Below are positions 23,628 through 38,003 of a stretch of 64,000 nt of DNA, one piece after another. Every line of letters starts with the position of its first letter. Positions within the stretch are counted from its first letter, which is position 1. Below the pieces are notes generated by a model that ran no database searches, had not been told where the DNA came from, and saw nothing but the letters and a program-made list of their open reading frames with translations. The position numbers and the translations under genes are program-made. The stretch lies in the IMG/VR virus record IMGVR_UViG_3300043499_000238, positions 32,001 through 96,000 of that record; one strand, 5' to 3'. Source of the stretch: a virus.

Positions 23628-24038
23628 ATGGCCTCGAACAGCGATCGCAGACATCTCTCTACACCGGGAGATGGATCGCGTCCGGGGCCATGGTTGCCGT
23701 TCCAGTCGACCCGGCTCAACGTCGCTAGGTACGACTCGGGCCTGCAGCAGATCCAGGTCATCTTCCGCGACGGCACACCGTGGGTCTACGACCAGGTGCC
23801 CCGCAACGTGTGGCGCAACTTCCGTCGAGCACCGTCGCCCGGTAGGTACATCGAGCGGGTGCTCAACGGCTTCCCCTACTTCCAGGGATCGTTCAGCTAC
23901 TCAGGCCACCTCGACACGCGCGACGACGAGGAGTTCGGCGGCGACGTCGAGCCGGAGCGTCAGGTCGTCGGTCAGCAGTTCGGCGGGCCGAGGACAAGCG
24001 GCACGCCGCTCCAGTCGGTCGGCAATCCCTGGGTGTGA
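23628..24038 (+). CDS. KTSC-domain protein
   Basis: STRLNVARYD...IQVIFRDG..WVYDQVPRNVWRNFRRAPSPGRY matches the KTSC pattern. Confidence 0.8.
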   Translation: MASNSDRRHLSTPGDGSRPGPWLPFQSTRLNVARYDSGLQQIQVIFRDGTPWVYDQVPRNVWRNFRRAPSPGRYIERVLNGFPYFQGSFSYSGHLDTRDDEEFGGDVEPERQVVGQQFGGPRTSGTPLQSVGNPWV

Positions 24039-25242: not shown

Positions 25243-25274
25243 ACACTCGGAGAGGCCCGTTCTAAGCTGCCCGT

Positions 25275-26861
25275 GTGACGGCAGCCGTACGCGAGATCGC
25301 CGAAGAGCGATACGAGGAGTACGTCGAGGAGCAAGAGGAGGCCGAGGACTTCGTTGAGGTCGACCCCGACTCCGAGGAGTTCATCCACGAGCTGACGATG
25401 CGCTGCATGGTCTTCATGGAGGCGCTGGCCGAGATACAGCTCCACCCCTATCAGAAGGATCTGGCGTACCGCACGATCCAGTCGGTGTTGCTCAACGACG
25501 GCGCCGAGATCACCGCCCTGTGGGCACGCCAGTCCGGCAAATCGACAGCGCTGGCGTCGATCATCGCGACGATGATGGTGCTGCTGCCCAAGTTGGCGGC
25601 CGCCTATCCCGAGCACTTCCCCCAGTTCGCTCGTGGGTTCCTCGTCGGAGTGTTTGCTCCGACTGAGGAGCAGGCGTACACGGTGTGGTCGAAGATCCAC
25701 GACATCCTCACCTGCAAGCGCGGCCGCGAGATCCTCAGCGACGAGGACATCGAGGACGTGCCGCAGAAGGAAGGCTCCAAGGTCAAGGTCGTCCGCCTCG
25801 TCAACAGCGGCTCGCTGTGCCGCATGCAGACCGCCAACCCGAAGGCGCAGATCGAGTCGAAGACGTACCACTTCGTGCTCCTCGATGAGAGCCAGGACTG
25901 CGACTCGGAGAAGGCACGCAAGTCGATCTTCCCGATGCTCGCCTCGACCAACGGCACCAAGGTGTTCACCGGCACCTGCTCGCGCAAGCGCAACTTCTTC
26001 TATGACGCCATCCAGGCCAACAAGCGCAAGGCGCTCCGTCGAGGCTCCCGGCAGGACCACTTCCAGTACAACTGGAAGGTCGTCGTCAAGTTCAACAGCT
26101 TCTACAAGAAGTACATCGCTGGGGAGAAGGAGCGGCTCGGCGAGGACAGTGACGAGTTCCGCCTGAGCTACGCATGCGAGTGGTTGCTGGAGTCGGGGAT
26201 GTTCGTGACCGAGGAGTCGTTGGACTTCCTTGGCGATCCCGGCATGGAGATCCAGCCGTGGTTCGTGGTCGACAAGTGCGTTGCGGGAATCGACGTGGCG
26301 CGCACCAAGGACTCGACCGTCGTCACCGTGATGTGGGTCGACTGGAACAACCCCGACCCGTACGGCTACTGCCAGCACCGCATCCTCAACTGGCTGGAGA
26401 TCCACAACAAGCTGTGGGAGCAGCAGTACGCACAGATCATCGAGTTCCTGTCGCACTACAACGTCGCGATCGTCGGTGTCGACGGTCAGGGCATGGGCCA
26501 GCCCGTCGGCGAGCGCATCGCCCACGAGATGCCGTGGGTCGACGTGCGCATCCTCAGCTCGGACCAGTCCACCCAGGAGAAGCGCTGGAAGCGGCTCAAG
26601 GCGTTGATCGAGCGGCGCATGTTCATCTACCCGGCCGGTCGCAAGACCAAGAGGCTGCGCTGCTACAAGCGCTTCCGGCTGCAGTTCGAGGAGCTGGAGA
26701 CGGCGTACAGCGGCAAGTACATGCTCGCCGCAGCGCCCGAGGCGGTCAACGCCTTCGATGACTACTGCGACTCGGCGGCCCTCGGCGTGGCCGTCACCGA
26801 GGACGAGGACTTCGGCGTGGTGCAGGTGGTCGACTCACCGTTCCATGGTCGCCACCGGTAA
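25275..26861 (+). CDS. terL: Terminase large subunit
   Basis: Walker A ARQSGKS, Walker B VLLDESQ, coupling motif FTGT, nuclease motifs GIDVAR and FDDYCDS. Confidence 0.95.
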   Translation: MTAAVREIAEERYEEYVEEQEEAEDFVEVDPDSEEFIHELTMRCMVFMEALAEIQLHPYQKDLAYRTIQSVLLNDGAEITALWARQSGKSTALASIIATMMVLLPKLAAAYPEHFPQFARGFLVGVFAPTEEQAYTVWSKIHDILTCKRGREILSDEDIEDVPQKEGSKVKVVRLVNSGSLCRMQTANPKAQIESKTYHFVLLDESQDCDSEKARKSIFPMLASTNGTKVFTGTCSRKRNFFYDAIQANKRKALRRGSRQDHFQYNWKVVVKFNSFYKKYIAGEKERLGEDSDEFRLSYACEWLLESGMFVTEESLDFLGDPGMEIQPWFVVDKCVAGIDVARTKDSTVVTVMWVDWNNPDPYGYCQHRILNWLEIHNKLWEQQYAQIIEFLSHYNVAIVGVDGQGMGQPVGERIAHEMPWVDVRILSSDQSTQEKRWKRLKALIERRMFIYPAGRKTKRLRCYKRFRLQFEELETAYSGKYMLAAAPEAVNAFDDYCDSAALGVAVTEDEDFGVVQVVDSPFHGRHR

Positions 26862-26885: not shown

Positions 26886-27287
26886 ATGACGATTGCACCG
26901 AACCCGCTCTTCCCCGAGCGGACGTCCCAGGCGTACGAGCTGGCCTTCGCTGCGAACCCTGCGGGCAACCGCGGGGACATGCGGTTCGAGGAGGGCATCG
27001 GCACCGACACTGACGTCCCCAACGACTTCGTGCGTGGAGCGTTCATGGACCCGACCTCGGTTCCCGGGCGGCTCAGCCACAACAACCCCGACATGGTCTA
27101 CAAGAGCGCCGAGGAGACGATGCGCGAGCGCGCACACGTCGGCAGCGCTTCGTGGATCGAGGCGCCAGCGATGCTGAGCGACTTCGTCGCCGGAGCGGGC
27201 GTCGGCCAGACGCCGCCCTCCTTCGAGATGATCCGCGTGCCCGGCACCTACATGTACCGCCGGGCGCCAACGGTCATTGACGACTGA
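26886..27287 (+). CDS. Phage head-region protein
   Basis: Directly follows terL with its own leaderless promoter (TACGCT-6 nt-ATG). Confidence 0.7.
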   Translation: MTIAPNPLFPERTSQAYELAFAANPAGNRGDMRFEEGIGTDTDVPNDFVRGAFMDPTSVPGRLSHNNPDMVYKSAEETMRERAHVGSASWIEAPAMLSDFVAGAGVGQTPPSFEMIRVPGTYMYRRAPTVIDD

Positions 27288-27293
27288 GCTGCC

Positions 27294-27854
27294 GTGGCGC
27301 GCTCGTACAAGTCAGCGCTGCCGACGTGGTCGACGTACACGCCGCACGTCTCCCCGCTCGGGATCCAGGCGCCTGTGAACCAGGAGACCATCTGGCGTAA
27401 TCGAGCGCGCCAGTTCTCGCCTGCTGGCATCCACGGCGAGATGAACCGCGCCATGCTCGGGATCCAGGCACAGGTGAAGGGCACGGGCGCCGGGTACGCC
27501 GCTGTGCAGACGGTTGGCCACACGCCACTCATCGACGCCGCACAGGGCTTCGCCAACCAGCGCCGCGACGCCCAGCGCACCTGGGCGGCGCACATGCAGG
27601 ACTCGCTCCAGCGTCAGGCGCCCGAGGACATGGTCGCCCCCGGCGAGGCGCCTCCGCAGGAGGAGACGCAGGTGCGTGCCGCACGTACCGCACCCGACAC
27701 CGTCAACCCCGCCGACGTGCAGACCCAGGACGCCGCTCGCGGCTCCGCCGAGCAGATGGTCGGAGGCGTGCTGCGCTCGAAGCGCTCCGGCCCGTCCACC
27801 ATCCCCGTGTCGATGACCCAGTCGGGCATCTTCGTACCCACGAGAGGCAGATAG
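27294..27854 (+). CDS. Hypothetical, largely disordered protein
   Basis: ORF track. Confidence 0.6.
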   Translation: MARSYKSALPTWSTYTPHVSPLGIQAPVNQETIWRNRARQFSPAGIHGEMNRAMLGIQAQVKGTGAGYAAVQTVGHTPLIDAAQGFANQRRDAQRTWAAHMQDSLQRQAPEDMVAPGEAPPQEETQVRAARTAPDTVNPADVQTQDAARGSAEQMVGGVLRSKRSGPSTIPVSMTQSGIFVPTRGR

Positions 27855-27856
27855 CC

Positions 27857-28012
27857 ATGGCAGATCAGGACTACGTCGGGCAGCTCGCCCCCGGTGAAGA
27901 GGCGGCCGGTGGGCCGATCGATGAGCCGTACCAGGGCTTCGCTCCGTACATGCACCAGGGCCAGTCGATGAACGAGGCGTTCGCCGAGGGCGCTCAGGCC
28001 GGTCGCTACTGA
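27857..28012 (+). CDS. 51-aa acidic peptide (not in the ORF track)
   Basis: MADQDYVGQLAPGEEAAGGPIDEPYQGFAPYMHQGQSMNEAFAEGAQAGRY; SD GAGG. Confidence 0.55.
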   Translation: MADQDYVGQLAPGEEAAGGPIDEPYQGFAPYMHQGQSMNEAFAEGAQAGRY

Positions 28013-28051
28013 TCGACCCGGCCCGATAGGGCCGTCGCTTACGCTGGGCGT

Positions 28052-28534
28052 GTGGACACCAACTGGGGTATCAGTCTCGTCCGCACCATCGTTGTTCCGC
28101 TCTCGATCGGCTTGCTCGTCTCGTTGCTGATCCCCTTCGGTGGCGGCTCTTCCTCCTTCGTCGGGATCGCAAGAGTCGCCACCATCTTCTCGATCGCCGT
28201 GGCGTGGTATGTCTGCGCCCGTCTGGCCCAGCGCGCACGCCCGCAGCTCGGCTTCCTCCTCGGAGTCTCTGTCCGACCTCGGTACGGAGAGGACGGTGAA
28301 CACGAGCTAGCGCCGTCCCTCCGACGCACGCTCGTGCCGCTCGCCGTCGCCACGGCGGTCGGGTGCTTGGTTGCGGCGTTCATCGGGGGCGCCACGCCTG
28401 CACTGGCCGTCGTGGCGGCCGCACTTACGTACTACGGAAGCCTCCGCTACATCGAGGTCTACGCCCGTCCCTACTCGACAGCTCGGGACGTCGCTGGGTG
28501 GTTCCTCGGCGCCCGAGCTGTCCCCTACTACTGA
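28052..28534 (+). CDS. Four-TM membrane protein
   Basis: Four hydrophobic segments; leaderless TACGCT-6 nt-GTG. Confidence 0.7.
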   Translation: MDTNWGISLVRTIVVPLSIGLLVSLLIPFGGGSSSFVGIARVATIFSIAVAWYVCARLAQRARPQLGFLLGVSVRPRYGEDGEHELAPSLRRTLVPLAVATAVGCLVAAFIGGATPALAVVAAALTYYGSLRYIEVYARPYSTARDVAGWFLGARAVPYY

Positions 28535-28543
28535 GGAGTCGAC

Positions 28544-29998
28544 GTGCCGAGGAAGAAGGCCGCAGCAGCGCCAGGACCGATGTCACCGGACGAGCTGCGC
28601 GCCGCATACATCCCCGGCGTGGGGCCGCAGGGATCGATCAACGGCGTCAAGCCGCACCGCACCGCCGCCGGTCGTGAGAAGCAGCGGGCCGCCCGTGAGG
28701 AGATGCACCGCACGATCCCGCAGCAGGAGCTGCCCGAGTCGGGCGAGGCCGTGCGCATGCCCAACCCGAAGTCAGCCAAGTTCCACAAGCCAGCCGTGAT
28801 GAGCGAGGCCGAGTCGGTGCAGGCGGCCAACGCTCGTGCGTCTCGCGCTGCGTGGGAGCAGACGCCCGAGGGCAAGGCGCGCACCGCCAACATGAGCGAC
28901 CTGATGGGCGCCGATGCCAAGGGGATGTCGATCCGCCAGGTGTACGGAGCCAAGAAGGCACCGACGCGCGACCCCGGCCCGGTGACCGGTCAGCTACAGC
29001 TCCCCGGCATGGCCGACCCCCACGCAGCTCCGCGCCCGGCGCGCTGGGAGGAGCTGTCGGAGGCCAACCGCAGCCACGCCCTCAAGGGGCTGGCGCTTCA
29101 CGGCACGAGCATCGAGCAGATGATCGGCGACTATGGAGCGCAGATCGACCAGGCCCACCACCGCGCCTGGCAGGCCGGTGCCGAGCGGCCCTTCTCGCAG
29201 GAGTTCTACAGCGTCGGTGAACCACGCCAGGTGATCAGCCAGTCGGCGCACGAGCTGGGCATCCCCGAGCAGATCCACTCGCACATGAACGCCCTCACGT
29301 CGCCGAACACCAAGTTCAGCCAGCGCACCAAGGAAGGCGAGACGGTCTACCCCAACAACCGCGCCGCCGAGCACGCAGTGCGTCACGTCCAGCAGGGTGG
29401 TGATCCGGCCGACCTGACCAACGCCTTCTCGACCACCGGCATGGAGCGCTGGAAGGGCGAGCACGCCCAGGGCTACGAGAAGAACATGATCAAGGCGGCG
29501 TCGTCGTACCAGCAGCACGAGGCTGGCGTTCCTCCGGCGGAGTGGGTGACCGGCAAGAAGGGCGAGGGTCCGTTCGAGTCATCGCCCAAGACCGGCCCGT
29601 ACTCCAACTCGTGGAACGACTCGCACCCGCAGTTCTTCGTCAGCGACGTGCACTCCGGTGGCGGCGGCTTCCTCCCCCACCTCTCATCGGACAAGCCGGT
29701 GCCGATGGAGGGCGGTCAGATCAAGCGCACCGCCTCGGGCAAGAAGGCGTCGGTGAAGAGCGAGCGCGAGGTCGGCATCGAGCGCACGCCGTTCTTCCAT
29801 GCCGCTGCCGACTACGCAGCGCGCCAGGCGCACGAGGCCCGCGGCATCGCTCACGTACGGGAAGGCCAGGCGGTGCAGTGGGGCGAGGAGCAACTGCAGC
29901 GCGGTGAGGCCGGGATGCGCGGCGCCCCCAAGCAGCGCGACGTCTACCCGGCGGCGGTCAACACCAAGCAGTTCAACCACCCGTCGCTGTTCGACTGA
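28544..29998 (+). CDS. DUF7178-like / HhH-glycosylase-fold-like protein with disordered N-terminus
   Basis: ALTSPNTKF..N, SPKTGPYSNSW, FFVSDVH and QAVQW appear in the order I recall for this family. Confidence 0.5.
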   Translation: MPRKKAAAAPGPMSPDELRAAYIPGVGPQGSINGVKPHRTAAGREKQRAAREEMHRTIPQQELPESGEAVRMPNPKSAKFHKPAVMSEAESVQAANARASRAAWEQTPEGKARTANMSDLMGADAKGMSIRQVYGAKKAPTRDPGPVTGQLQLPGMADPHAAPRPARWEELSEANRSHALKGLALHGTSIEQMIGDYGAQIDQAHHRAWQAGAERPFSQEFYSVGEPRQVISQSAHELGIPEQIHSHMNALTSPNTKFSQRTKEGETVYPNNRAAEHAVRHVQQGGDPADLTNAFSTTGMERWKGEHAQGYEKNMIKAASSYQQHEAGVPPAEWVTGKKGEGPFESSPKTGPYSNSWNDSHPQFFVSDVHSGGGGFLPHLSSDKPVPMEGGQIKRTASGKKASVKSEREVGIERTPFFHAAADYAARQAHEARGIAHVREGQAVQWGEEQLQRGEAGMRGAPKQRDVYPAAVNTKQFNHPSLFD

Positions 29999-30008
29999 GG
30001 AGACCACG

Positions 30009-30200
30009 ATGAGCAACTACGAGAACGAGCGGGAGATGTGGGACGACATCGCCCGCAACGATCGCCCGAGCGGCCGCATGATCCGTCGGGTCGGTGTGCA
30101 CCCCAGCAACTTCGGCAAGGGACCGGCGCTGCAGAAGAACGCGAGCGGAAGTGGGTACCACGTCAAGGGCGCCCCCGGCTTCGAGGACGATCCCGACTGA
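30009..30200 (+). CDS. Small hypothetical protein
   Basis: SD GAGGAG; ORF. Confidence 0.55.
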   Translation: MSNYENEREMWDDIARNDRPSGRMIRRVGVHPSNFGKGPALQKNASGSGYHVKGAPGFEDDPD

Positions 30201-30231
30201 TGGCCAGTTACCACTACCCAAGGGGAAGACA

Positions 30232-30450
30232 ATGAAGCAGCTCGCAACCGTCATGCTCGCCGAGATCATGGACTCGCCGGACTTCGCCGAGATCATGTTC
30301 CTCGTGGCGTTCATCCTGTTCGTCATCGAGGTCGTGCGTCTCGCCGTCGGCCGCGGCTCGGCGTGGGACTTCCACTGGATCCTCGTCGTCGCCGGTCTCG
30401 CCTGCATCTCTCTCGGGCTGCTCGCCCTACCGACCGGCGCAGCACCGTGA
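30232..30450 (+). CDS. Two-TM membrane protein
   Basis: Two hydrophobic helices. Confidence 0.65.
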   Translation: MKQLATVMLAEIMDSPDFAEIMFLVAFILFVIEVVRLAVGRGSAWDFHWILVVAGLACISLGLLALPTGAAP

Positions 30451-30557
30451 CGCCAGCCGTGCTGTCGGCGATCCTCGCTGATGGCATCTATGTCGGCGGC
30501 GGCTTCCTGCTGCTGGTGCTCGTCATCATCCTGATCGTCATCCTGCTGCGGAGATAG
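30447..30557 (+). CDS. 36-aa single-TM peptide
   Basis: GIYVGGGFLLLVLVIILIVILLRR. Confidence 0.6.
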   Translation: MTPAVLSAILADGIYVGGGFLLLVLVIILIVILLRR

Positions 30558-30559
30558 CG

Positions 30560-30775
30560 ATGGCCGCCCACGATCATCTCGGCGCCCAGTTCGGTGTCGG
30601 CGACACCGTGCACGTACCAGGCCACGGGCCGGTCACCGTCGAGTCGATGAACAAGCGCTACTTCTCCGGCACCACGGCGTCCGGTGAGCGTCTCGGTCAG
30701 ACCGGCATCGGTCTGGCCGCCGGGCAGGGGATGCGTGGCGGCACCCCGTGGCGGGTCGAGAGAGGCGCCGAGTAG
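30560..30775 (+). CDS. Small SH3/KOW-like protein with N-terminal DHLGAQF tag
   Basis: FGVGDTVHVPGHGPVTVES beta-rich pattern. Confidence 0.6.
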   Translation: MAAHDHLGAQFGVGDTVHVPGHGPVTVESMNKRYFSGTTASGERLGQTGIGLAAGQGMRGGTPWRVERGAE

Positions 30776-30778
30776 CTC

Positions 30779-31573
30779 GTGACGATCCGAGGCCGTATCT
30801 ACCGAGGGGAGGTGCGCCACGCCGTTCCGACGTACCAGCACCCCGACCCAGCGGCGCATGCGGCCGAGGATCCCGAGGGCTTCCTCCACCAGTGGATGCA
30901 GCCGCACTACCCGTACCCGAAGGGCTGGACCGGCGACGCTCCCACCGTCGGCCAGCACTGGACGCGCTCGCCGCAGAGCATCCCCGAGCGCTTCATCGAG
31001 CCGGTGCTGCTGCGCCCGCAGCCGGGTGTGCCGATGGGCAAGCGTGAGCAGACCGCCGTGATGCGCCGGGAGGCGACCGAGCAGGACACGGGTGGCCCGG
31101 GCTACGGCATGCCCGGCCACGAAGAGCACCAGGAGATGATGCGCAAGTACGCGGCGCATGCCGACCGAGCTGACCGTCAGGGCATCAACACGTACCACGA
31201 TCTCTCCGGCGGCGACCCGGACCGCCCGGGAGCGGCCAAGCCGTACAAGATGGCCGTGGTGTGGGAGGGCCAGCACCATGAAGCTGCCGAGCAAGGCACC
31301 AACTACGAGGACGAGCTGAACATCCCCATGGGTGAGCACGTCACCGTCACTGGTGCGCGCATCTACGTACCGAAGCCAGGCGTGGAGCACGACTTCCGGG
31401 CGCGCCACCCGTCGGTGTTCACGCCCGAGGAGCACGCCCACGCACGGGCCGACGTGATCACTCGATCGGCGTACAGCCACATCGACCCCCACTCGTCTAT
31501 CCCTTGGAGCCGGATCCAGTTCGAGAACGCTCAGCAGCTCAAAGTCGATCGCTACCGGGGAGGGTCGCGCTGA
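30779..31573 (+). CDS. Putative ADP-ribosyltransferase-fold protein
   Basis: IYRG...GQHWTRS...EDEL, the R-S/T-ExE order of ART folds. Confidence 0.5.
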   Translation: MTIRGRIYRGEVRHAVPTYQHPDPAAHAAEDPEGFLHQWMQPHYPYPKGWTGDAPTVGQHWTRSPQSIPERFIEPVLLRPQPGVPMGKREQTAVMRREATEQDTGGPGYGMPGHEEHQEMMRKYAAHADRADRQGINTYHDLSGGDPDRPGAAKPYKMAVVWEGQHHEAAEQGTNYEDELNIPMGEHVTVTGARIYVPKPGVEHDFRARHPSVFTPEEHAHARADVITRSAYSHIDPHSSIPWSRIQFENAQQLKVDRYRGGSR

Positions 31574-31583
31574 GCTACAGTGA

Positions 31584-31910
31584 TCTTGAACGTTGGCGTG
31601 AAGAAGGGGACGAGTTATGCGACAACCGGCTCGCCCTGGAGTAGTCGCTGACGACGGGGTCGGGCCGCAGGCACGCAGGTCCGGTTGGTCCGACCCCGAC
31701 CATTCGATGGAGGGCACGTACTGGTGATCTCGATCGGTGCTGGTGAAGCACGGGCACTTGCCCCTGACGCTTTCCTTGGATGCGACGTACAGCCTTCTGG
31801 TTCGCCGGACTGGCCGAGGCGGGACACCATGGTCTGTCGTTCAGGGAGAGAGACCCGGATGGATCCAGAGACCGACGAGGGCATCGGGTAGGCGTTCACG
31901 GACGTTGAGA
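31584..31910 (+). ncRNA. Candidate large structured non-coding RNA (about 325 nt)
   Basis: -10 TACAGT at 31576-31581; 5' and 3' ends complementary; at least six internal helices, a UUCG loop and a possible pseudoknot; no credible ORF in an otherwise gene-dense region. Confidence 0.6.
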
Positions 31911-31936
31911 AGTGCGGGGGGACCGTGATCCTCCCA

Positions 31937-32197
31937 ATGCGGCGACGTGCCCTCCCTCAATCCAGCGAGCAGTACGGTTGGTCCATGGCCAAGCACGAGC
32001 ACATGACGCCGGTCGACGCCGTCACCCACGCCGCGCTCATCGGGCACTTGATCCGCGGCACGGTGGTCGAGGGCAAGAGCTTCGTGGAGGCACACGCCGA
32101 TGCCCGCAAGGCTGTTGGCGCCGGAGCGGAGAGCCACGTCCGTCACGCCGGTCCTGCGATCGATGAGGCGCTCTACCCGTCGTGGGCGCAGCCATAG
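31937..32197 (+). CDS. Small His-rich hypothetical protein
   Basis: ORF track. Confidence 0.55.
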   Translation: MRRRALPQSSEQYGWSMAKHEHMTPVDAVTHAALIGHLIRGTVVEGKSFVEAHADARKAVGAGAESHVRHAGPAIDEALYPSWAQP

Positions 32198-32233
32198 CTC
32201 CCCCGTGATCGGGGCCAGATCTACGCTGGGGCC

Positions 32234-32701
32234 ATGACGACCCCTGCTCCCGTCCTCACGATCACGCCCGCCTCCGTGAACCGGACGGCCGCCGATCTCA
32301 CCCCCACCGTGAACCTCGCCGACACGGCGACGCACACGCCCGTCGCCACCGGCCGCTCGTTCCGGTTCGACGCCGTTGCCGTGAAGGCGACCGTCGGCGC
32401 TACCGGAGCAGGCATCTCCTCCGCAGTGCCGTACCCCGTCAACCTTGCCGCCGGTACTCGCCAGGGCAGCGTCGCCACGACGAATACCGACGGCACCGGC
32501 ACGAGCGCCAACGTTGCGCTCACCGTGACCGACGCAGTCGCCACGCAGTACGCCACGCCGGTCTACGTCGAGAACAACAAGAACGTCAGCCGCTGGTTGC
32601 CCGAGCAGCTCCCCAACGAGTACCGCGACCCCACGCTGTCGACGCCGGGGCTGCCCACGGCGACGGGCGTGTACAACGCCCGTACCCGCGGCGTCATCTG
32701 A
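32234..32701 (+). CDS. Thr/Ala/Val-rich beta protein, probably virion structural or decoration
   Basis: Ig-like composition; leaderless TACGCT-6 nt-ATG. Confidence 0.55.
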   Translation: MTTPAPVLTITPASVNRTAADLTPTVNLADTATHTPVATGRSFRFDAVAVKATVGATGAGISSAVPYPVNLAAGTRQGSVATTNTDGTGTSANVALTVTDAVATQYATPVYVENNKNVSRWLPEQLPNEYRDPTLSTPGLPTATGVYNARTRGVI

Positions 32702-32702
32702 C

Positions 32703-33800
32703 GTGCCTCGGGTGGCCGAGCCACCTGGGCAGGCTGGGTCCACCCGTCTAGCCCGCGAGCACGTCGACCGTACGCGCGACCTGACAGCAGCGGCCGCTGC
32801 GCCGGGCGACACCAACGCTGCTGTCGACGCTCACCAGCACGCCGTCAGTCGTGTGCAGGACCACGCCGGGCGCATGGGCGTCAACCTCGTTGACCTCCCG
32901 CCGATGAACCCCAAGCCGTTGCGGCCGGGACAGGTGAGCCAAGGCACGCTGTGGGACTCCCGCTCGATGAAGCCGTCGCCGGAGCACCAGTGGGCGGCGC
33001 ACGGCTACTCCCCCGAGCGCCGCGACGCCATCGCCGCCGCGATCCCCAAGGTGGGTGTCTCGTCTTCCTTCTCGTACCCCGGCGGTAGCACGGGCGTGCC
33101 GTACACGGGCGAGGTCACTGGCGGTGTGTATCCGGCGATCGGTCAAGTCGGCGGCAAGCGCAAGAACCAGGTGGCTGCGACACGCAACTCGGTGGTCGAC
33201 ATCCTCGCTCGATCGACGGCGCCGTTGGGCGACATCGTCAACGCCACGCCGGACATCAAGGTGCAGCCGATGGCGAGAGCGGCCGGTCAGCACCGCACGA
33301 AGATGCGCGGGTGGGAGGACGAGCCGTTCGTCCGTGAGATCAAGCTCCACCCCGGTGGCGGCCCGGCGCGCACCCGTGCCCAGGTCGAGCACACCGTGCT
33401 CCACGAGTTCGGGCACAACGTCGACTTCGAGCGTGACCGTAAAGCCTTCACCACCAACGCACGATTCAACCTCCCGGCGGTGGAGGGGTTCGCCGAGGGC
33501 TACGCCGCCAAGCACCGGGTGGGGCGGCGCAACGAGCCACCCGTTCCGTACTCCGGCGTTGCCGCCTACAAGAGCATGCACGGTCGCTCCTCGTTCGGTG
33601 AGAACTTCGAGCGTGCAAGCGGGCGATCGCTCCCTCAGGCGATGGGTGCGCAGAAGCATCTCGGTGAGCAGTGGTCGCAGGGCAAGCTCTTCACCGGATC
33701 GAGCGAGACCGGTTTCGTCAAGGATGAGAACGAGCCACTCCCCACGATCTCGAATGCCGAGTGGGACCACCTCACCGGGCGCAACCGTGCCCGCCGTTGA
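32703..33800 (+). CDS. Zincin-like metallopeptidase (HExxH)
   Basis: VLHEFGH followed by VEGFAEGYA (third-ligand Glu). Confidence 0.7.
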   Translation: MPRVAEPPGQAGSTRLAREHVDRTRDLTAAAAAPGDTNAAVDAHQHAVSRVQDHAGRMGVNLVDLPPMNPKPLRPGQVSQGTLWDSRSMKPSPEHQWAAHGYSPERRDAIAAAIPKVGVSSSFSYPGGSTGVPYTGEVTGGVYPAIGQVGGKRKNQVAATRNSVVDILARSTAPLGDIVNATPDIKVQPMARAAGQHRTKMRGWEDEPFVREIKLHPGGGPARTRAQVEHTVLHEFGHNVDFERDRKAFTTNARFNLPAVEGFAEGYAAKHRVGRRNEPPVPYSGVAAYKSMHGRSSFGENFERASGRSLPQAMGAQKHLGEQWSQGKLFTGSSETGFVKDENEPLPTISNAEWDHLTGRNRARR

Positions 33801-34101
33801 CCATCTCAACGGCGAGCTGTTCCACGGCACCGCTCACCCGTTCGAGCCGGGCGACATCGTCAGCCCCACCGACACCGAGCACACCGAGTTCCCGACGGCG
33901 TGGGCGACACCACGGATGGACGAGGCCAACCAGATCGCACGGGCCAAGGTGCGTCGGCACAACCGTCGCAACCCCGACGACCCAGCCACCGAGCACGTCT
34001 TCGCCGTCGAGCACATGAGCAAGCCGGTCGATGTGTGGGGACGAGCCAACGTCGCCGCAGACCCCGTTGGCTTCCGCGTACTACGTAGGGTTGGTCCGTG
34101 A
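33787..34101 (+). CDS. Arr-like ADP-ribosyltransferase domain protein
   Basis: LFHGTAHPFEPGDIVSP...WAT...VFAVE resembles the Arr N-terminal H-G-T...PGD motif; GTG start at 33787. Confidence 0.6.
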   Translation: MPAVDHLNGELFHGTAHPFEPGDIVSPTDTEHTEFPTAWATPRMDEANQIARAKVRRHNRRNPDDPATEHVFAVEHMSKPVDVWGRANVAADPVGFRVLRRVGP

Positions 34102-35789
34102 GCATCGCCTTCTGGCCTCCGAGCTACCGCGCCGGTACCTCGGACCTTGCCATCCAGATCTCGCCGCTCGGCCTGGTCGACCTCAGCAACGAGGAGATGG
34201 AGGTCCACGGCATCCGCCTCAGCAGGTACTCGCTCTACTGGGCGCACTACCTCGGCCACCACTGGGCGTACCGCCGTGAGGTCGGCGAGCCGCAGTTCAC
34301 GTTCAACTACGTGCGGGCACTGAGCGACTACCTCACGAACTTCACCTTCGGCCGTGGCGTCACCTTCCAGTCGCCGCCAGCGACCGCCGCCATCGTGCCC
34401 ACACTCCTCAAGCGAGTGTGGGAGGGCGACAACCGCAAGGCCGCACTGCTGTGGGAGATGGGACAGATCGCCTCGGTAACCGGCGACCTCTTCGTCAAGG
34501 TGGCGTACGAAGACCCGTTCGTTGACCCGGCGGGACGGGTCCATCCTGGCCGGGTTCGGATACTCCCTCTGAACCCGGCCAACTGCTTCCCGCAATGGCA
34601 CGAGCACGACCGCACACGGCTGCTCAGCTTCAAGCTCAAGTATCGCTTCTTCTCCACCGACCAGACCGGCACGCGCATCGTCAATACCTACGTCGAGCGC
34701 GTCACCGACAACGGCATCGAGGAGTACGTCAACGACGAGCTGATCTCGGCCCGCCCCAACCCGCTGGGCGTGATCCCGATCGTCTACATCCCCAACATCA
34801 TGGTGAGCGGCTCACCGTGGGGACTGAGCGACATCGGCGAGGTGATCCCGCTCAACCGTGAGTACAACGAGAAGGCGATCGAGATCTCCGACATCGTCAA
34901 CTACCACTCCGCTCCCGTCACGGTGATCACCGGGGCCAAGGTGCCGCAGTTGGAGAAGGGTGCGCGCAAGACGTGGTTCCTGCCCAAGGACGCCAAGGTC
35001 GAGACTCTGCAGTCCACCTGGCAGCTAGAGCACATGCTCGGCTACATGGAGGTCGTCAAGCGGGGCATGCACGAGATGACCGGCGTGCCGGAGCAAGCGC
35101 TCGGGCAGGTGCAGCCGATCAGCAACACCAGCGGCGTGGCGTTGGCGATCCAGTACGCGCCAACGATGCAGCGCTTCCGCATGAAGAAGAACAACTTCGA
35201 GACGGGCTTCCAACAGATCAACGAGCTGGTGCTCTTGACGCTGTTCCAGAAGGAACCCATGTCGATGCAGTTCAACCCCATGGAGGATCTCGCCCCCAAG
35301 CCGGGACAGCTCACAGCGCTCGATCCCGCTGACCCCAACAGCTACGAGACGTCGGTCTACTGGCCCGAGCCACTGCCGGTCGACGTGCTCGTCAAGCTCA
35401 ACGAGATCGCACAGAAGATGCAGCTCGGCATCGAGTCCAAGCGCGGTGCGCTCGCCGACCTCGGTGAGGAGTTCCCCGACGCCAAGCTCGCCGAGATCTT
35501 CGCTGAGATCCTCGAAGACTCCAAGGATCAGGGTGCGTTGCAGCTCCAGAACAGCGCCATCCAGTCGGCGATCGTTGCGCTCACCGGCATGGTGCCCCAG
35601 GGCGGCGAGGTGGCCGACACCGGACAGCAGGGTGCCGACAGCGGCTCGCCTGACGCTGGTGGTACCGGCATCATGCCTGGTCTCGTGCTCGATCAGAACA
35701 CGATGAACCTCATGAACGAGCTGACGACTCGGGCGTACCTGCCTCGCATGGGACAGTTCAGGAATCCCTCCAACGCAGGCATCGAGTAG
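34098..35789 (+). CDS. Portal protein (SPP1 gp6-like)
   Basis: 563 aa; NPLGVIPIVYIPN, GLSDI and SGVAL motifs; position before scaffold and capsid. Confidence 0.9.
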   Translation: MSIAFWPPSYRAGTSDLAIQISPLGLVDLSNEEMEVHGIRLSRYSLYWAHYLGHHWAYRREVGEPQFTFNYVRALSDYLTNFTFGRGVTFQSPPATAAIVPTLLKRVWEGDNRKAALLWEMGQIASVTGDLFVKVAYEDPFVDPAGRVHPGRVRILPLNPANCFPQWHEHDRTRLLSFKLKYRFFSTDQTGTRIVNTYVERVTDNGIEEYVNDELISARPNPLGVIPIVYIPNIMVSGSPWGLSDIGEVIPLNREYNEKAIEISDIVNYHSAPVTVITGAKVPQLEKGARKTWFLPKDAKVETLQSTWQLEHMLGYMEVVKRGMHEMTGVPEQALGQVQPISNTSGVALAIQYAPTMQRFRMKKNNFETGFQQINELVLLTLFQKEPMSMQFNPMEDLAPKPGQLTALDPADPNSYETSVYWPEPLPVDVLVKLNEIAQKMQLGIESKRGALADLGEEFPDAKLAEIFAEILEDSKDQGALQLQNSAIQSAIVALTGMVPQGGEVADTGQQGADSGSPDAGGTGIMPGLVLDQNTMNLMNELTTRAYLPRMGQFRNPSNAGIE

Positions 35790-36803: not shown

Positions 36804-37931
36804 ATGCCCGATATCTCAGGTGGCATCTCGGGTACTGGCAACCTGTACTCGGGTGTGTCCGGTGGATCCAACCCGGCTGCCGTCCCGGTTGGTGGTGCCT
36901 TCCTCGGGGTGCAAGTGCCACCCGCCCCCAGCGGTCTCGTGACCCAGGGCTATCCGCAGGGGACGGCGATCACCGGCTCCACGACGATGACCCCCGCGGT
37001 CCAGACGATCTGGTCCAAGGAGATCCTCTTCCAGGCGATGCCCATCCTGAGGTTCGAGCAGTTCGCGGTCAAGAAGACCGAGCTGGGCGTCACCCCCGGC
37101 CTGACCGTGAACTTCATGAAGTACAACAACCTTGACGTCGACAGCGTCAACGGTGCGACCCTCACCGAAGGCATCCGCATGAGCACTCGTGCGCTGTCGG
37201 CCTTCCAGTTCCGCATCACGGTCGCCGAGCAGGGCACCGCCGTCGCCGTCTCCGAGCTGCTGCTGCACGCCTCGTTCGATGACGTGATGGCCTCGGCCTC
37301 TCGCCTGCTCGGGCGCCACATGGCGCAGTCGATGGACTACCAGGCCCGCAACACGCTGATGCTGGCGCCGGGGTCCGAGGTCTACGGCTACGACGACGCC
37401 GCCCCCTGGCAGGGCGCCTCGACCAACATCTACGAGCCGGGCACCAAGGCGGCCAACGCCGCCGCAGTGACCGGCGCCGTGGCCGCCACCAACAAGTACT
37501 ACCTCACCCCGCACACGGTGAAGGACGCAGTGCAGGCGCTGGCGTCGCTCAACATCCCCCGCCTCGGCGAGACGTACGTCATGTTCGCCCACCCGGCGCA
37601 GGCCCGCCGGTTGCGTGACTCCCCCGAGTTCATCGAGGTCACGAAGTACGCCGCCCCCGGCAACTTCATGCTCGGCGAGATCGGCCGCCTGTGGGACGTC
37701 GTCATCATCGAGACCACGCAGGTCAACTACGCCGCTGCGGGTGCGGGCAACAACTACTACGACGGGATCATGATCGGCGACAACGCCTTCGGTCACGCCG
37801 TGTCGTTGCCGGTCGAGCTTCGCGATGGCGGAGTCCTCGACTTCGGGCGTGAGCACGCTCTGGCGTGGTACGCCATTTGGGGTTGGGGTTCGATCACGCC
37901 GCAGGCCGTGGTCCGCGTCCTGACGAACTGA
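36804..37931 (+). CDS. Major capsid protein (N4-gp56-like, HK97 fold)
   Basis: LTEG, YVMFAHPAQ..LR and GEIGRLWDV motifs; strong SD; own -10 (TACTGT 36746); downstream terminator. Confidence 0.92.
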   Translation: MPDISGGISGTGNLYSGVSGGSNPAAVPVGGAFLGVQVPPAPSGLVTQGYPQGTAITGSTTMTPAVQTIWSKEILFQAMPILRFEQFAVKKTELGVTPGLTVNFMKYNNLDVDSVNGATLTEGIRMSTRALSAFQFRITVAEQGTAVAVSELLLHASFDDVMASASRLLGRHMAQSMDYQARNTLMLAPGSEVYGYDDAAPWQGASTNIYEPGTKAANAAAVTGAVAATNKYYLTPHTVKDAVQALASLNIPRLGETYVMFAHPAQARRLRDSPEFIEVTKYAAPGNFMLGEIGRLWDVVIIETTQVNYAAAGAGNNYYDGIMIGDNAFGHAVSLPVELRDGGVLDFGREHALAWYAIWGWGSITPQAVVRVLTN

Positions 37932-37958: not shown

Positions 37959-37988
37959 GACGGAGCGCCCCTTCGGGGGCGCTCTGTC
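37959..37988 (+). terminator. Terminator hairpin after the major capsid gene
   Basis: GACGGAGCGCCCC-TTCG-GGGGCGCTCTGTC. Confidence 0.75.
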
Positions 37989-38003
37989 GCGTACCGTGGA
38001 GGT

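Follow-up and report, generated by a model that had tools for sequence, protein, structure and literature searches.

What occupies the largest non-coding gap in the late region of this phage, and does it act as RNA, as DNA, or through a small peptide? The sequence comes from an uncultivated soil phage represented by a 111,140-bp IMG/VR virus record, of which bases 32001-96000 were analyzed here (64,000 nucleotides with a G+C content of ~66%, hereafter referred to as the window, to which all coordinates refer unless another genome is named). The window contains the large terminase gene (25275-26861), the portal gene (34098-35789), and the capsid gene (36804-37931). The portal protein is 53-57% identical to the portals of the Streptomyces phages GiJojo, Alone3, and BRock. 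Small genes for which no family match was found occupy the 7 kb from terminase to portal, and the gap lies among them. An earlier note on this DNA had described it as a gap of ~325 nt; it is indeed the largest in the late region, but it extends from 31574 to 31984, that is, over 411 nt.

Extent of the gap and its genomic context

Codon composition marks the limits of the gap. The GC3 values of the flanking genes (0.8-0.95) drop to ~0.6 in all three phases from 31574 and recover near 31985. The next gene, which encodes a protein of 70 aa, begins at ATG 31985 and not at GTG 31925, as this ATG and the preceding 12 nt are conserved in three relatives, and the gap therefore reaches 31984. An N-terminal extension of the 70-aa protein from GTG 31925 was rejected: a homologous locus in the metagenomic phage L093 has ACG at that codon, followed by an in-frame stop.

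The terminase-portal interval as a whole (26886-34097; also L006:2500-8000, L093:1-1066, and L003:2600-5870) forms a mosaic accessory island. Immediately upstream of the gap, a 71-aa ORF (30560-30775) and a 264-aa ORF (30779-31573) share the same frame, with one stop and one codon between them; their homologues in L003 are separate and more widely spaced than in the window. A start peptide of the form M-x-x-x-(D/E)-H seems to fit both the 70-aa protein (31985, MAKHEH...) and the protein encoded at L006:4837 (MSALDHV...).

Distribution of the element among related phages

In all collections reached, the sequence that fills the gap (hereafter the element) occurs in three distinct versions, namely that of the window and those of the metagenomic phages L006 (5473-5879) and L093 (659-1066). 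The L006 version was found in identical form in several contigs from four metagenomes. Pairwise identity among the three versions is 63-69%, below that of the adjacent coding DNA. Homology to L006 and L093 sets in at the stop codon of the preceding gene and declines beyond 31955, and invariant blocks of 10-24 nt alternate in the alignment with segments that differ in sequence and have a similar fold.

Blastn and tblastn searches against GenBank phages retrieved no match for the element, the 264-aa protein, or the protein of a neighboring 155-aa gene. DNA-pattern scans of IMG/VR returned contigs of the L006 type and chance matches only, and the same kind of scan over GTDB genomes returned nothing but chance matches. 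Protein-guided scans of IMG/VR, JGI metagenomes, and GTDB added one new version, that of L093 (the contigs of 13 further homologues of the 155-aa protein lie outside the locus comparison), and nhmmer found no distant copies in any of the fetched loci. A DNA search of 401 genomes of Actinomycetota yielded no homologue, only scattered chance matches of 20-40 nt; the unpublished genomes G319 and G344 are part of this sample and underlie this negative result alone. Elsewhere in the phage genome, neither a second copy of the element nor a repeat was found.

The two sides of the element differ in their neighbors. The upstream genes of the three carriers (264, 209, and 204 aa) are unrelated to one another, and the element starts at their stop codon, while its 3' end always lies just ahead of the same 70-aa gene on the same strand. 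Homologues of both the 264-aa and the 70-aa genes also occur in two relatives, L003/L008 and L092, which have related portal genes; there, only ~40 nt separate the two genes and the element is missing. More distant relatives are without these flanking genes. Judged from these loci, the element is an accessory, optional module that borders a variable accessory block, since it is missing from close relatives that share its flanking genes. A downstream gene for a 365-aa zincin-like protein is present in the three carriers and absent from the two non-carriers, lineages too few to interpret.

Coding potential of the gap

The stretch 31574-31984 is non-coding, and the span devoid of coding signal measures 351-411 nt. 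Substitutions between versions affect the three codon phases about equally (0.35/0.36/0.32 and 0.37/0.34/0.36), indels between them are mostly not multiples of three, and the conserved nucleotide blocks that lie in one frame in the window lie in another in L006 or L093. Given this lack of codon periodicity and the differing frames of the conserved blocks, no protein accounts for the conservation. The ORF at 31685-31891, which the earlier note had named among the findings that could overturn its RNA interpretation, is excluded as a conserved protein.

The weak point of the non-coding reading is a + strand frame (~31724-31889) that is free of stops in all three versions. A short protein or leader peptide might be read from it, from a GUG near 31724, preceded by a GGAGGG run, to the UAG at 31887-31889, and in each phage the distance separating the conserved ends is divisible by three. 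However, amino-acid identity in this frame is 37-40%, lower than nucleotide identity, its middle is unalignable, and its GC3 is 0.62, as compared to 0.8-0.9 in real genes. We did not count the open frame as evidence for a protein, because several other long frames arise by chance in this G+C-rich stretch. Together with the absence of phase bias and the shifting frames of the conserved blocks, these properties make a peptide very improbable.

Putative promoter and predicted transcript ends

The element opens with a -10-like hexamer, TACAGT, at 31576-31581, which is the only copy on the + strand of the window. It is followed by six bases and then by G31588, the predicted transcript start, and the first helix of the element (P1, see below) begins three bases further on. 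L006 has the same TACAGT at this site and L093 has TACGAT. In actinobacterial leaderless genes, a TAnnnT -10 hexamer spans -12 to -7 and the start codon begins at +1, and a corresponding pattern is found across this genome. Hexamers of the type TAnnnT are rare on its + strand (91 in 111 kb), yet 36 of these 91 stand 6-7 nt before an ATG or GTG (an offset of 12 or 13), as compared to 2-6 at neighboring offsets. Among the genes that carry the signal are those for the terminase, the portal, the 70-aa protein, and the 155-aa protein, and examples in the window start at 25263, 26874, 28040, 31973, 32222, 34086, 37992, and 41210. The pattern suggests that many genes, terminase and portal included, would be made as leaderless transcripts from -10-only promoters. 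The hexamer at the head of the element fits the TAnnnT-N6/7-start pattern, in agreement with the earlier note, which had read it as a signal of the -10 style.

Shine-Dalgarno sequences are mostly absent at the starts that carry the TAnnnT signal. Just upstream of several hexamers (37960-37990, near 28015-28035, and 32200-32220) there are short G+C-rich hairpins without a U tract, such as the one after the capsid gene, which has a 9-bp stem and a UUCG loop. These hairpins may be terminators that give rise to single-gene transcription units.

Because the element opens with the same TAnnnT signal as 36 start codons, it probably has a promoter of its own. At its other end, the 70-aa gene has its own start signal outside the RNA (31973-31987, + strand: TACGGT, 6 nt, and ATG 31985), which is conserved in the carriers and in the element-free L003. 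As this signal follows an unconserved spacer of 17 nt, a separate non-coding transcript is favored over a leader of the 70-aa gene. No terminator-like site was detected at the element, and read-through is therefore possible.

The element could alternatively work in cis on the head-gene transcript, as a leader, a processing or stabilizing site, or an insulator for the 70-aa gene onward. It always lies directly upstream of that gene on the same strand with no terminator detected between them, and its 3' hairpin pairs a Shine-Dalgarno-like G-rich run with a CCUCC-like run. On the other hand, the TAnnnT-N6-ATG of the 70-aa gene is present in carriers and non-carriers alike, relatives with the same flanking genes lack the element, and the 17 nt between the RNA and TACGGT are not conserved. 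Neither an alternative terminator/anti-terminator pair nor pairing that would hide a start codon was seen. A role in cis is conceivable, but we judge it unlikely.

Consensus structure and compensatory changes

Folding of the three versions with RNAalifold gave a consensus of -122.8 kcal/mol, as compared to -87.4 +/- 5.6 kcal/mol for column shuffles (z -6.3), and none of the 100 shuffles reached this value. The structure conservation index (SCI, the consensus energy divided by the mean single-sequence energy) was 0.68 versus 0.51 for shuffles. The adjacent 155-aa gene from the same three genomes served as coding control and gave z -2.1 and an SCI of 0.57 versus 0.53 when shuffled. In the RNAalifold structure, 29 pairs are double-changed (counted per sequence, not per evolutionary event), against 12.6 +/- 2.5 with shuffled partners and 3-7 with partners slid by 1-3 columns. 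Pairing is found in 91.9% of cells, a percentage inflated by testing the structure on the alignment that produced it, a circularity to which the excess of double changes is less sensitive. Three distinct versions give no statistical power for a formal covariation test. In the hand-curated helices, 60 of 65 pairs are standard in all three versions, and 20 are compensatory. Imposing the common scaffold costs 1.6-11.7 kcal/mol relative to the unconstrained minimum-energy fold of each sequence. By comparison of these three sequences, the element is a structured RNA whose pairing is kept by compensatory change beyond the level of the controls.

Folding energy of single sequences was less uniform. 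The refined cores reach z -4.5 in L006 and in L093, but that of the window copy is not unusually stable against shuffles (z -1.08). G-U pairs are more numerous in the window copy, and its apical hairpin at 31830-31853 is weakened. Over the interval of the earlier note, which had called the RNA highly structured, the + strand gives z -0.86 and the - strand z -0.15, so for the window copy folding energy does not bear out that description. Its broader proposal of a non-coding, structured RNA on the + strand gains support from the comparison of the three homologues and none from the energy of the window copy.

Could such a copy be a gene or mobile element in decay that no longer has a function? 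The presence of the element in some relatives and its absence from others would fit decay, as would the G-U pairs, the weakened hairpin, and the unremarkable folding energy of the window copy. Against this, blocks of 10-24 nt are invariant across phages whose neighboring protein is only ~64% identical, compensatory changes maintain at least nine helices, the element shows neither terminal repeats nor a target duplication, and the genome has no reverse transcriptase. A functionless remnant is accordingly the reading to which we give the least credence, and we consider it exceedingly unlikely.

Predicted fold of the RNA

Homology, the consensus fold, and the double-changed pairs support a conserved core of the candidate RNA at 31588-31956 on the + strand (~369 nt). 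The RNA would fold into three domains: a 5' stem-loop, a long hairpin, and a large domain closed by an 11-bp long-range helix (L1) and holding a long interrupted helix, an inner arm, and two 3' hairpins. The hairpin at 31655-31698, L1, and a 7-bp hairpin at 31916-31935 are common to the single-sequence minimum-energy folds of all three versions, and the helices P1, P1a, P3, and P8 were added by hand comparison of the versions.

Domain 1 (31591-31653) is formed by P1 (31591-31598/31646-31653), the strands of which differ in all three phages with the pairing retained. Inside it lies the stem P1a (31605-31608 and 31611-31614 with 31630-31637), where all four pairs of the upper stem are compensatory. 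Hairpin A (31655-31667/31686-31698) has 13 bp in the window and 12-14 bp at the same place in all three versions, with five double-changed pairs. L1 (31709-31719/31945-31955) is perfect in all three single-sequence folds and includes one change from C-G to U-A; its 3' strand is the end of the conserved RNA, and the next 17 nt are not conserved. Helix P3 is long and interrupted (31721-31743 with 31865-31887), with sub-helices at 31721-31726/31882-31887, 31729-31732/31876-31879, and 31740-31743/31865-31868 and three compensatory pairs. Two segments compete within it, as either 31740-31743 or 31776-31780 can pair with 31863-31868, and both have changed in step in L093. The inner arm (31744-31864) consists of conserved unpaired blocks and variable hairpins, and its detailed pairing is uncertain. 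Two of its hairpins, 31796-31800/31805-31809 with a UUCG loop and 31830-31834/31849-31853, keep their position while their sequence changes. They are followed by hairpin P8 (31891-31896/31901-31906), with two compensatory pairs, and by the 3' hairpin (31916-31922/31929-31935, extended by 31913-31915/31939-31941), which pairs in all three versions with three double changes. All of these features lie on the + strand. The invariant blocks of 10-24 nt between the helices include three purine-rich, GARAAG-like stretches and are probably sites of tertiary contacts or sites for a bound partner.

This fold retains some of the helices first drawn from the window copy and replaces others. Those at 31655-31667/31686-31698, 31605-31614/31630-31637, 31796-31809 (the UUCG hairpin), and 31830-31834/31849-31853 stand after comparison of the three versions. 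The RNA had been taken to end at 31910; the conserved RNA runs to near 31956, and the main long-range helix, 31709-31719/31945-31955, had been missed. The proposed closing stem (31584-31602/31895-31910) acquires one mismatch in L006 and two in L093, all uncompensated, and its bases lie in P1 and P8. The helix 31767-31783/31881-31895 is not kept in L093 and competes with the covarying 31721-31743/31865-31887, and the CCAT/ATGG hairpin overlaps the long-range helix. The proposed loop pseudoknot includes one compensatory pair, yet two of the three versions have it in conflict with P1.

The strand on which the pairing is used was addressed by folding the complement. The + strand consensus is 24 kcal/mol better than that of the - strand (-122.8 versus -98.9 kcal/mol), and the G-U pairs favor the + strand, as the earlier note had argued. 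Nevertheless, the consensus fold of the minus strand also beats its own shuffles (z -6.3), as it would if the element were a DNA-level site (a packaging site, an origin, a recombination boundary, or a set of single-stranded DNA hairpins) with pairing that is not used in RNA. Its position between terminase and portal, at the junction of variable accessory and conserved blocks, and the three unrelated upstream genes that abut it in the three carriers are in line with such a site. The many G-U pairs and the lower energy of the + strand argue against it, as do compensatory long-range helices 235 nt apart, which would be unexpected for protein-binding DNA. Iterons and a second genomic copy were not found, and GATC or P1-pac-like repeats were rejected as candidates, GATC being common genome-wide and not enriched in the element. 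Moreover, close relatives can dispense with the element, as would not be expected of an origin or a packaging site. A site acting purely as DNA is, on balance, quite improbable.

Searches for known families and partners

Rfam 15 gave 0 matches at gathering thresholds over the whole window, and between 31400 and 32100 at E <= 10 the only match was a 27-nt chance similarity to blv_FSE (14.6 bits against a threshold of 34). ARAGORN detected neither tRNA nor tmRNA genes, whether in the window or across the 111-kb genome. The Rfam and ARAGORN results are in keeping with the earlier note, which had recognized no tRNA, tmRNA, or RNase P signatures. Most likely, the element is an accessory RNA gene whose family has not been described so far.

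Several candidate identities and partners were rejected. A group I or group II intron was discarded because the flanks are separate genes with their own stop and start in the element-free L003 and no intron model matched. A Y RNA with Ro60 was dismissed in the absence of any TROVE match in the genome, with controls matching as expected. No reverse transcriptase domain (RVT_1) was matched in the genome. A mobile element with terminal repeats was not retained either, as the homology continues well past the 11-bp inverted repeat and no target duplication is seen. A KTSC-domain protein (Pfam E 1.4e-12) is encoded at 23628-24038, upstream of the terminase; the suggestion that it is a nearby partner of the RNA does not hold, given that it lies 7.7 kb away and that nothing links KTSC to the RNA. 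Ro60 and reverse transcriptase, likewise considered as partners, are absent from the genome.

Proposed role and significance

We consider it rather probable that the element, as an accessory gene of the phage with its own -10-only promoter, encodes a non-coding RNA of ~370 nt that would act in trans as a scaffold or decoy. Transcription would probably start at G31588 through the -10-only TACAGT, a promoter of the type that appears to drive many leaderless genes here, and the product would be non-coding because no start codon follows TACAGT. Action in trans is preferred to a leader function on two grounds, namely the separate start signal of the next gene and the existence of close relatives that function without the element. 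With modest confidence, and from genomic context, we suggest that the RNA may serve as scaffold or decoy for a host or phage factor. The roles raised in the earlier note, in packaging, as a polymerase decoy, or against host defense, are conjectural. A bolder proposition, that the element is the first representative of a novel class of large phage RNAs acting in trans during infection, is one we would regard as possible but doubtful. As a decoy or scaffold, such an RNA could target a host defense or gene-expression factor; as cargo, it could be loaded with the neighboring accessory proteins.

To our knowledge, large structured RNAs without a protein partner are rare, and several of those known are phage-borne and of no known function. 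Another such RNA in phages of actinobacterial type would provide a tractable case, as ~370 nt is short enough for probing and cryo-EM, and a plausible promoter adds to the tractability of the candidate. Because close relatives can dispense with the element, genomes with and without it can be compared as they occur in nature. The gene-start signal has implications beyond the element: leaderless transcripts appear to serve most genes of this phage, and its phage group may rely heavily on them, which bears on how such phages take over translation.

Comparison with known systems

The predicted promoter of the element resembles the -10-only leaderless promoters of Actinobacteria in its hexamer, its spacing, and the purine at the predicted start; unlike in leaderless genes, no start codon follows TACAGT. 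In its location upstream of a same-strand gene, and in its conserved cores with variable stems, the element is similar to structured leaders such as riboswitches, T-boxes, and the rne 5' UTR. It differs from them in that it matches no Rfam family, no expression platform was found, and the downstream gene, which retains a start signal of its own, functions in relatives that have no element. The pRNA of phi29 is likewise a phage-encoded structured RNA, and the element, which the earlier note had suggested might be packaging-associated, lies between terminase and portal. However, phi29 pRNA is a smaller, essential RNA (~120-174 nt), whereas close relatives that share the head genes lack the element, which also has no match in Rfam and in which no interlocking-loop complementarity was identified.

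GOLLD and ROOL, two families of large RNAs, have no known function and often occur near tRNA islands, whereas this genome contains no tRNA. The element does not match their Rfam models, and at ~370 nt it is shorter than either (~580 and >800 nt). GOLLD and ROOL are encoded in phages and prophages and form homo-oligomeric cages (PMC12286853). The element resembles them in being large, multi-domain, and seemingly protein-free, in its presence in some phages and not in their close relatives, and in its conserved unpaired blocks.
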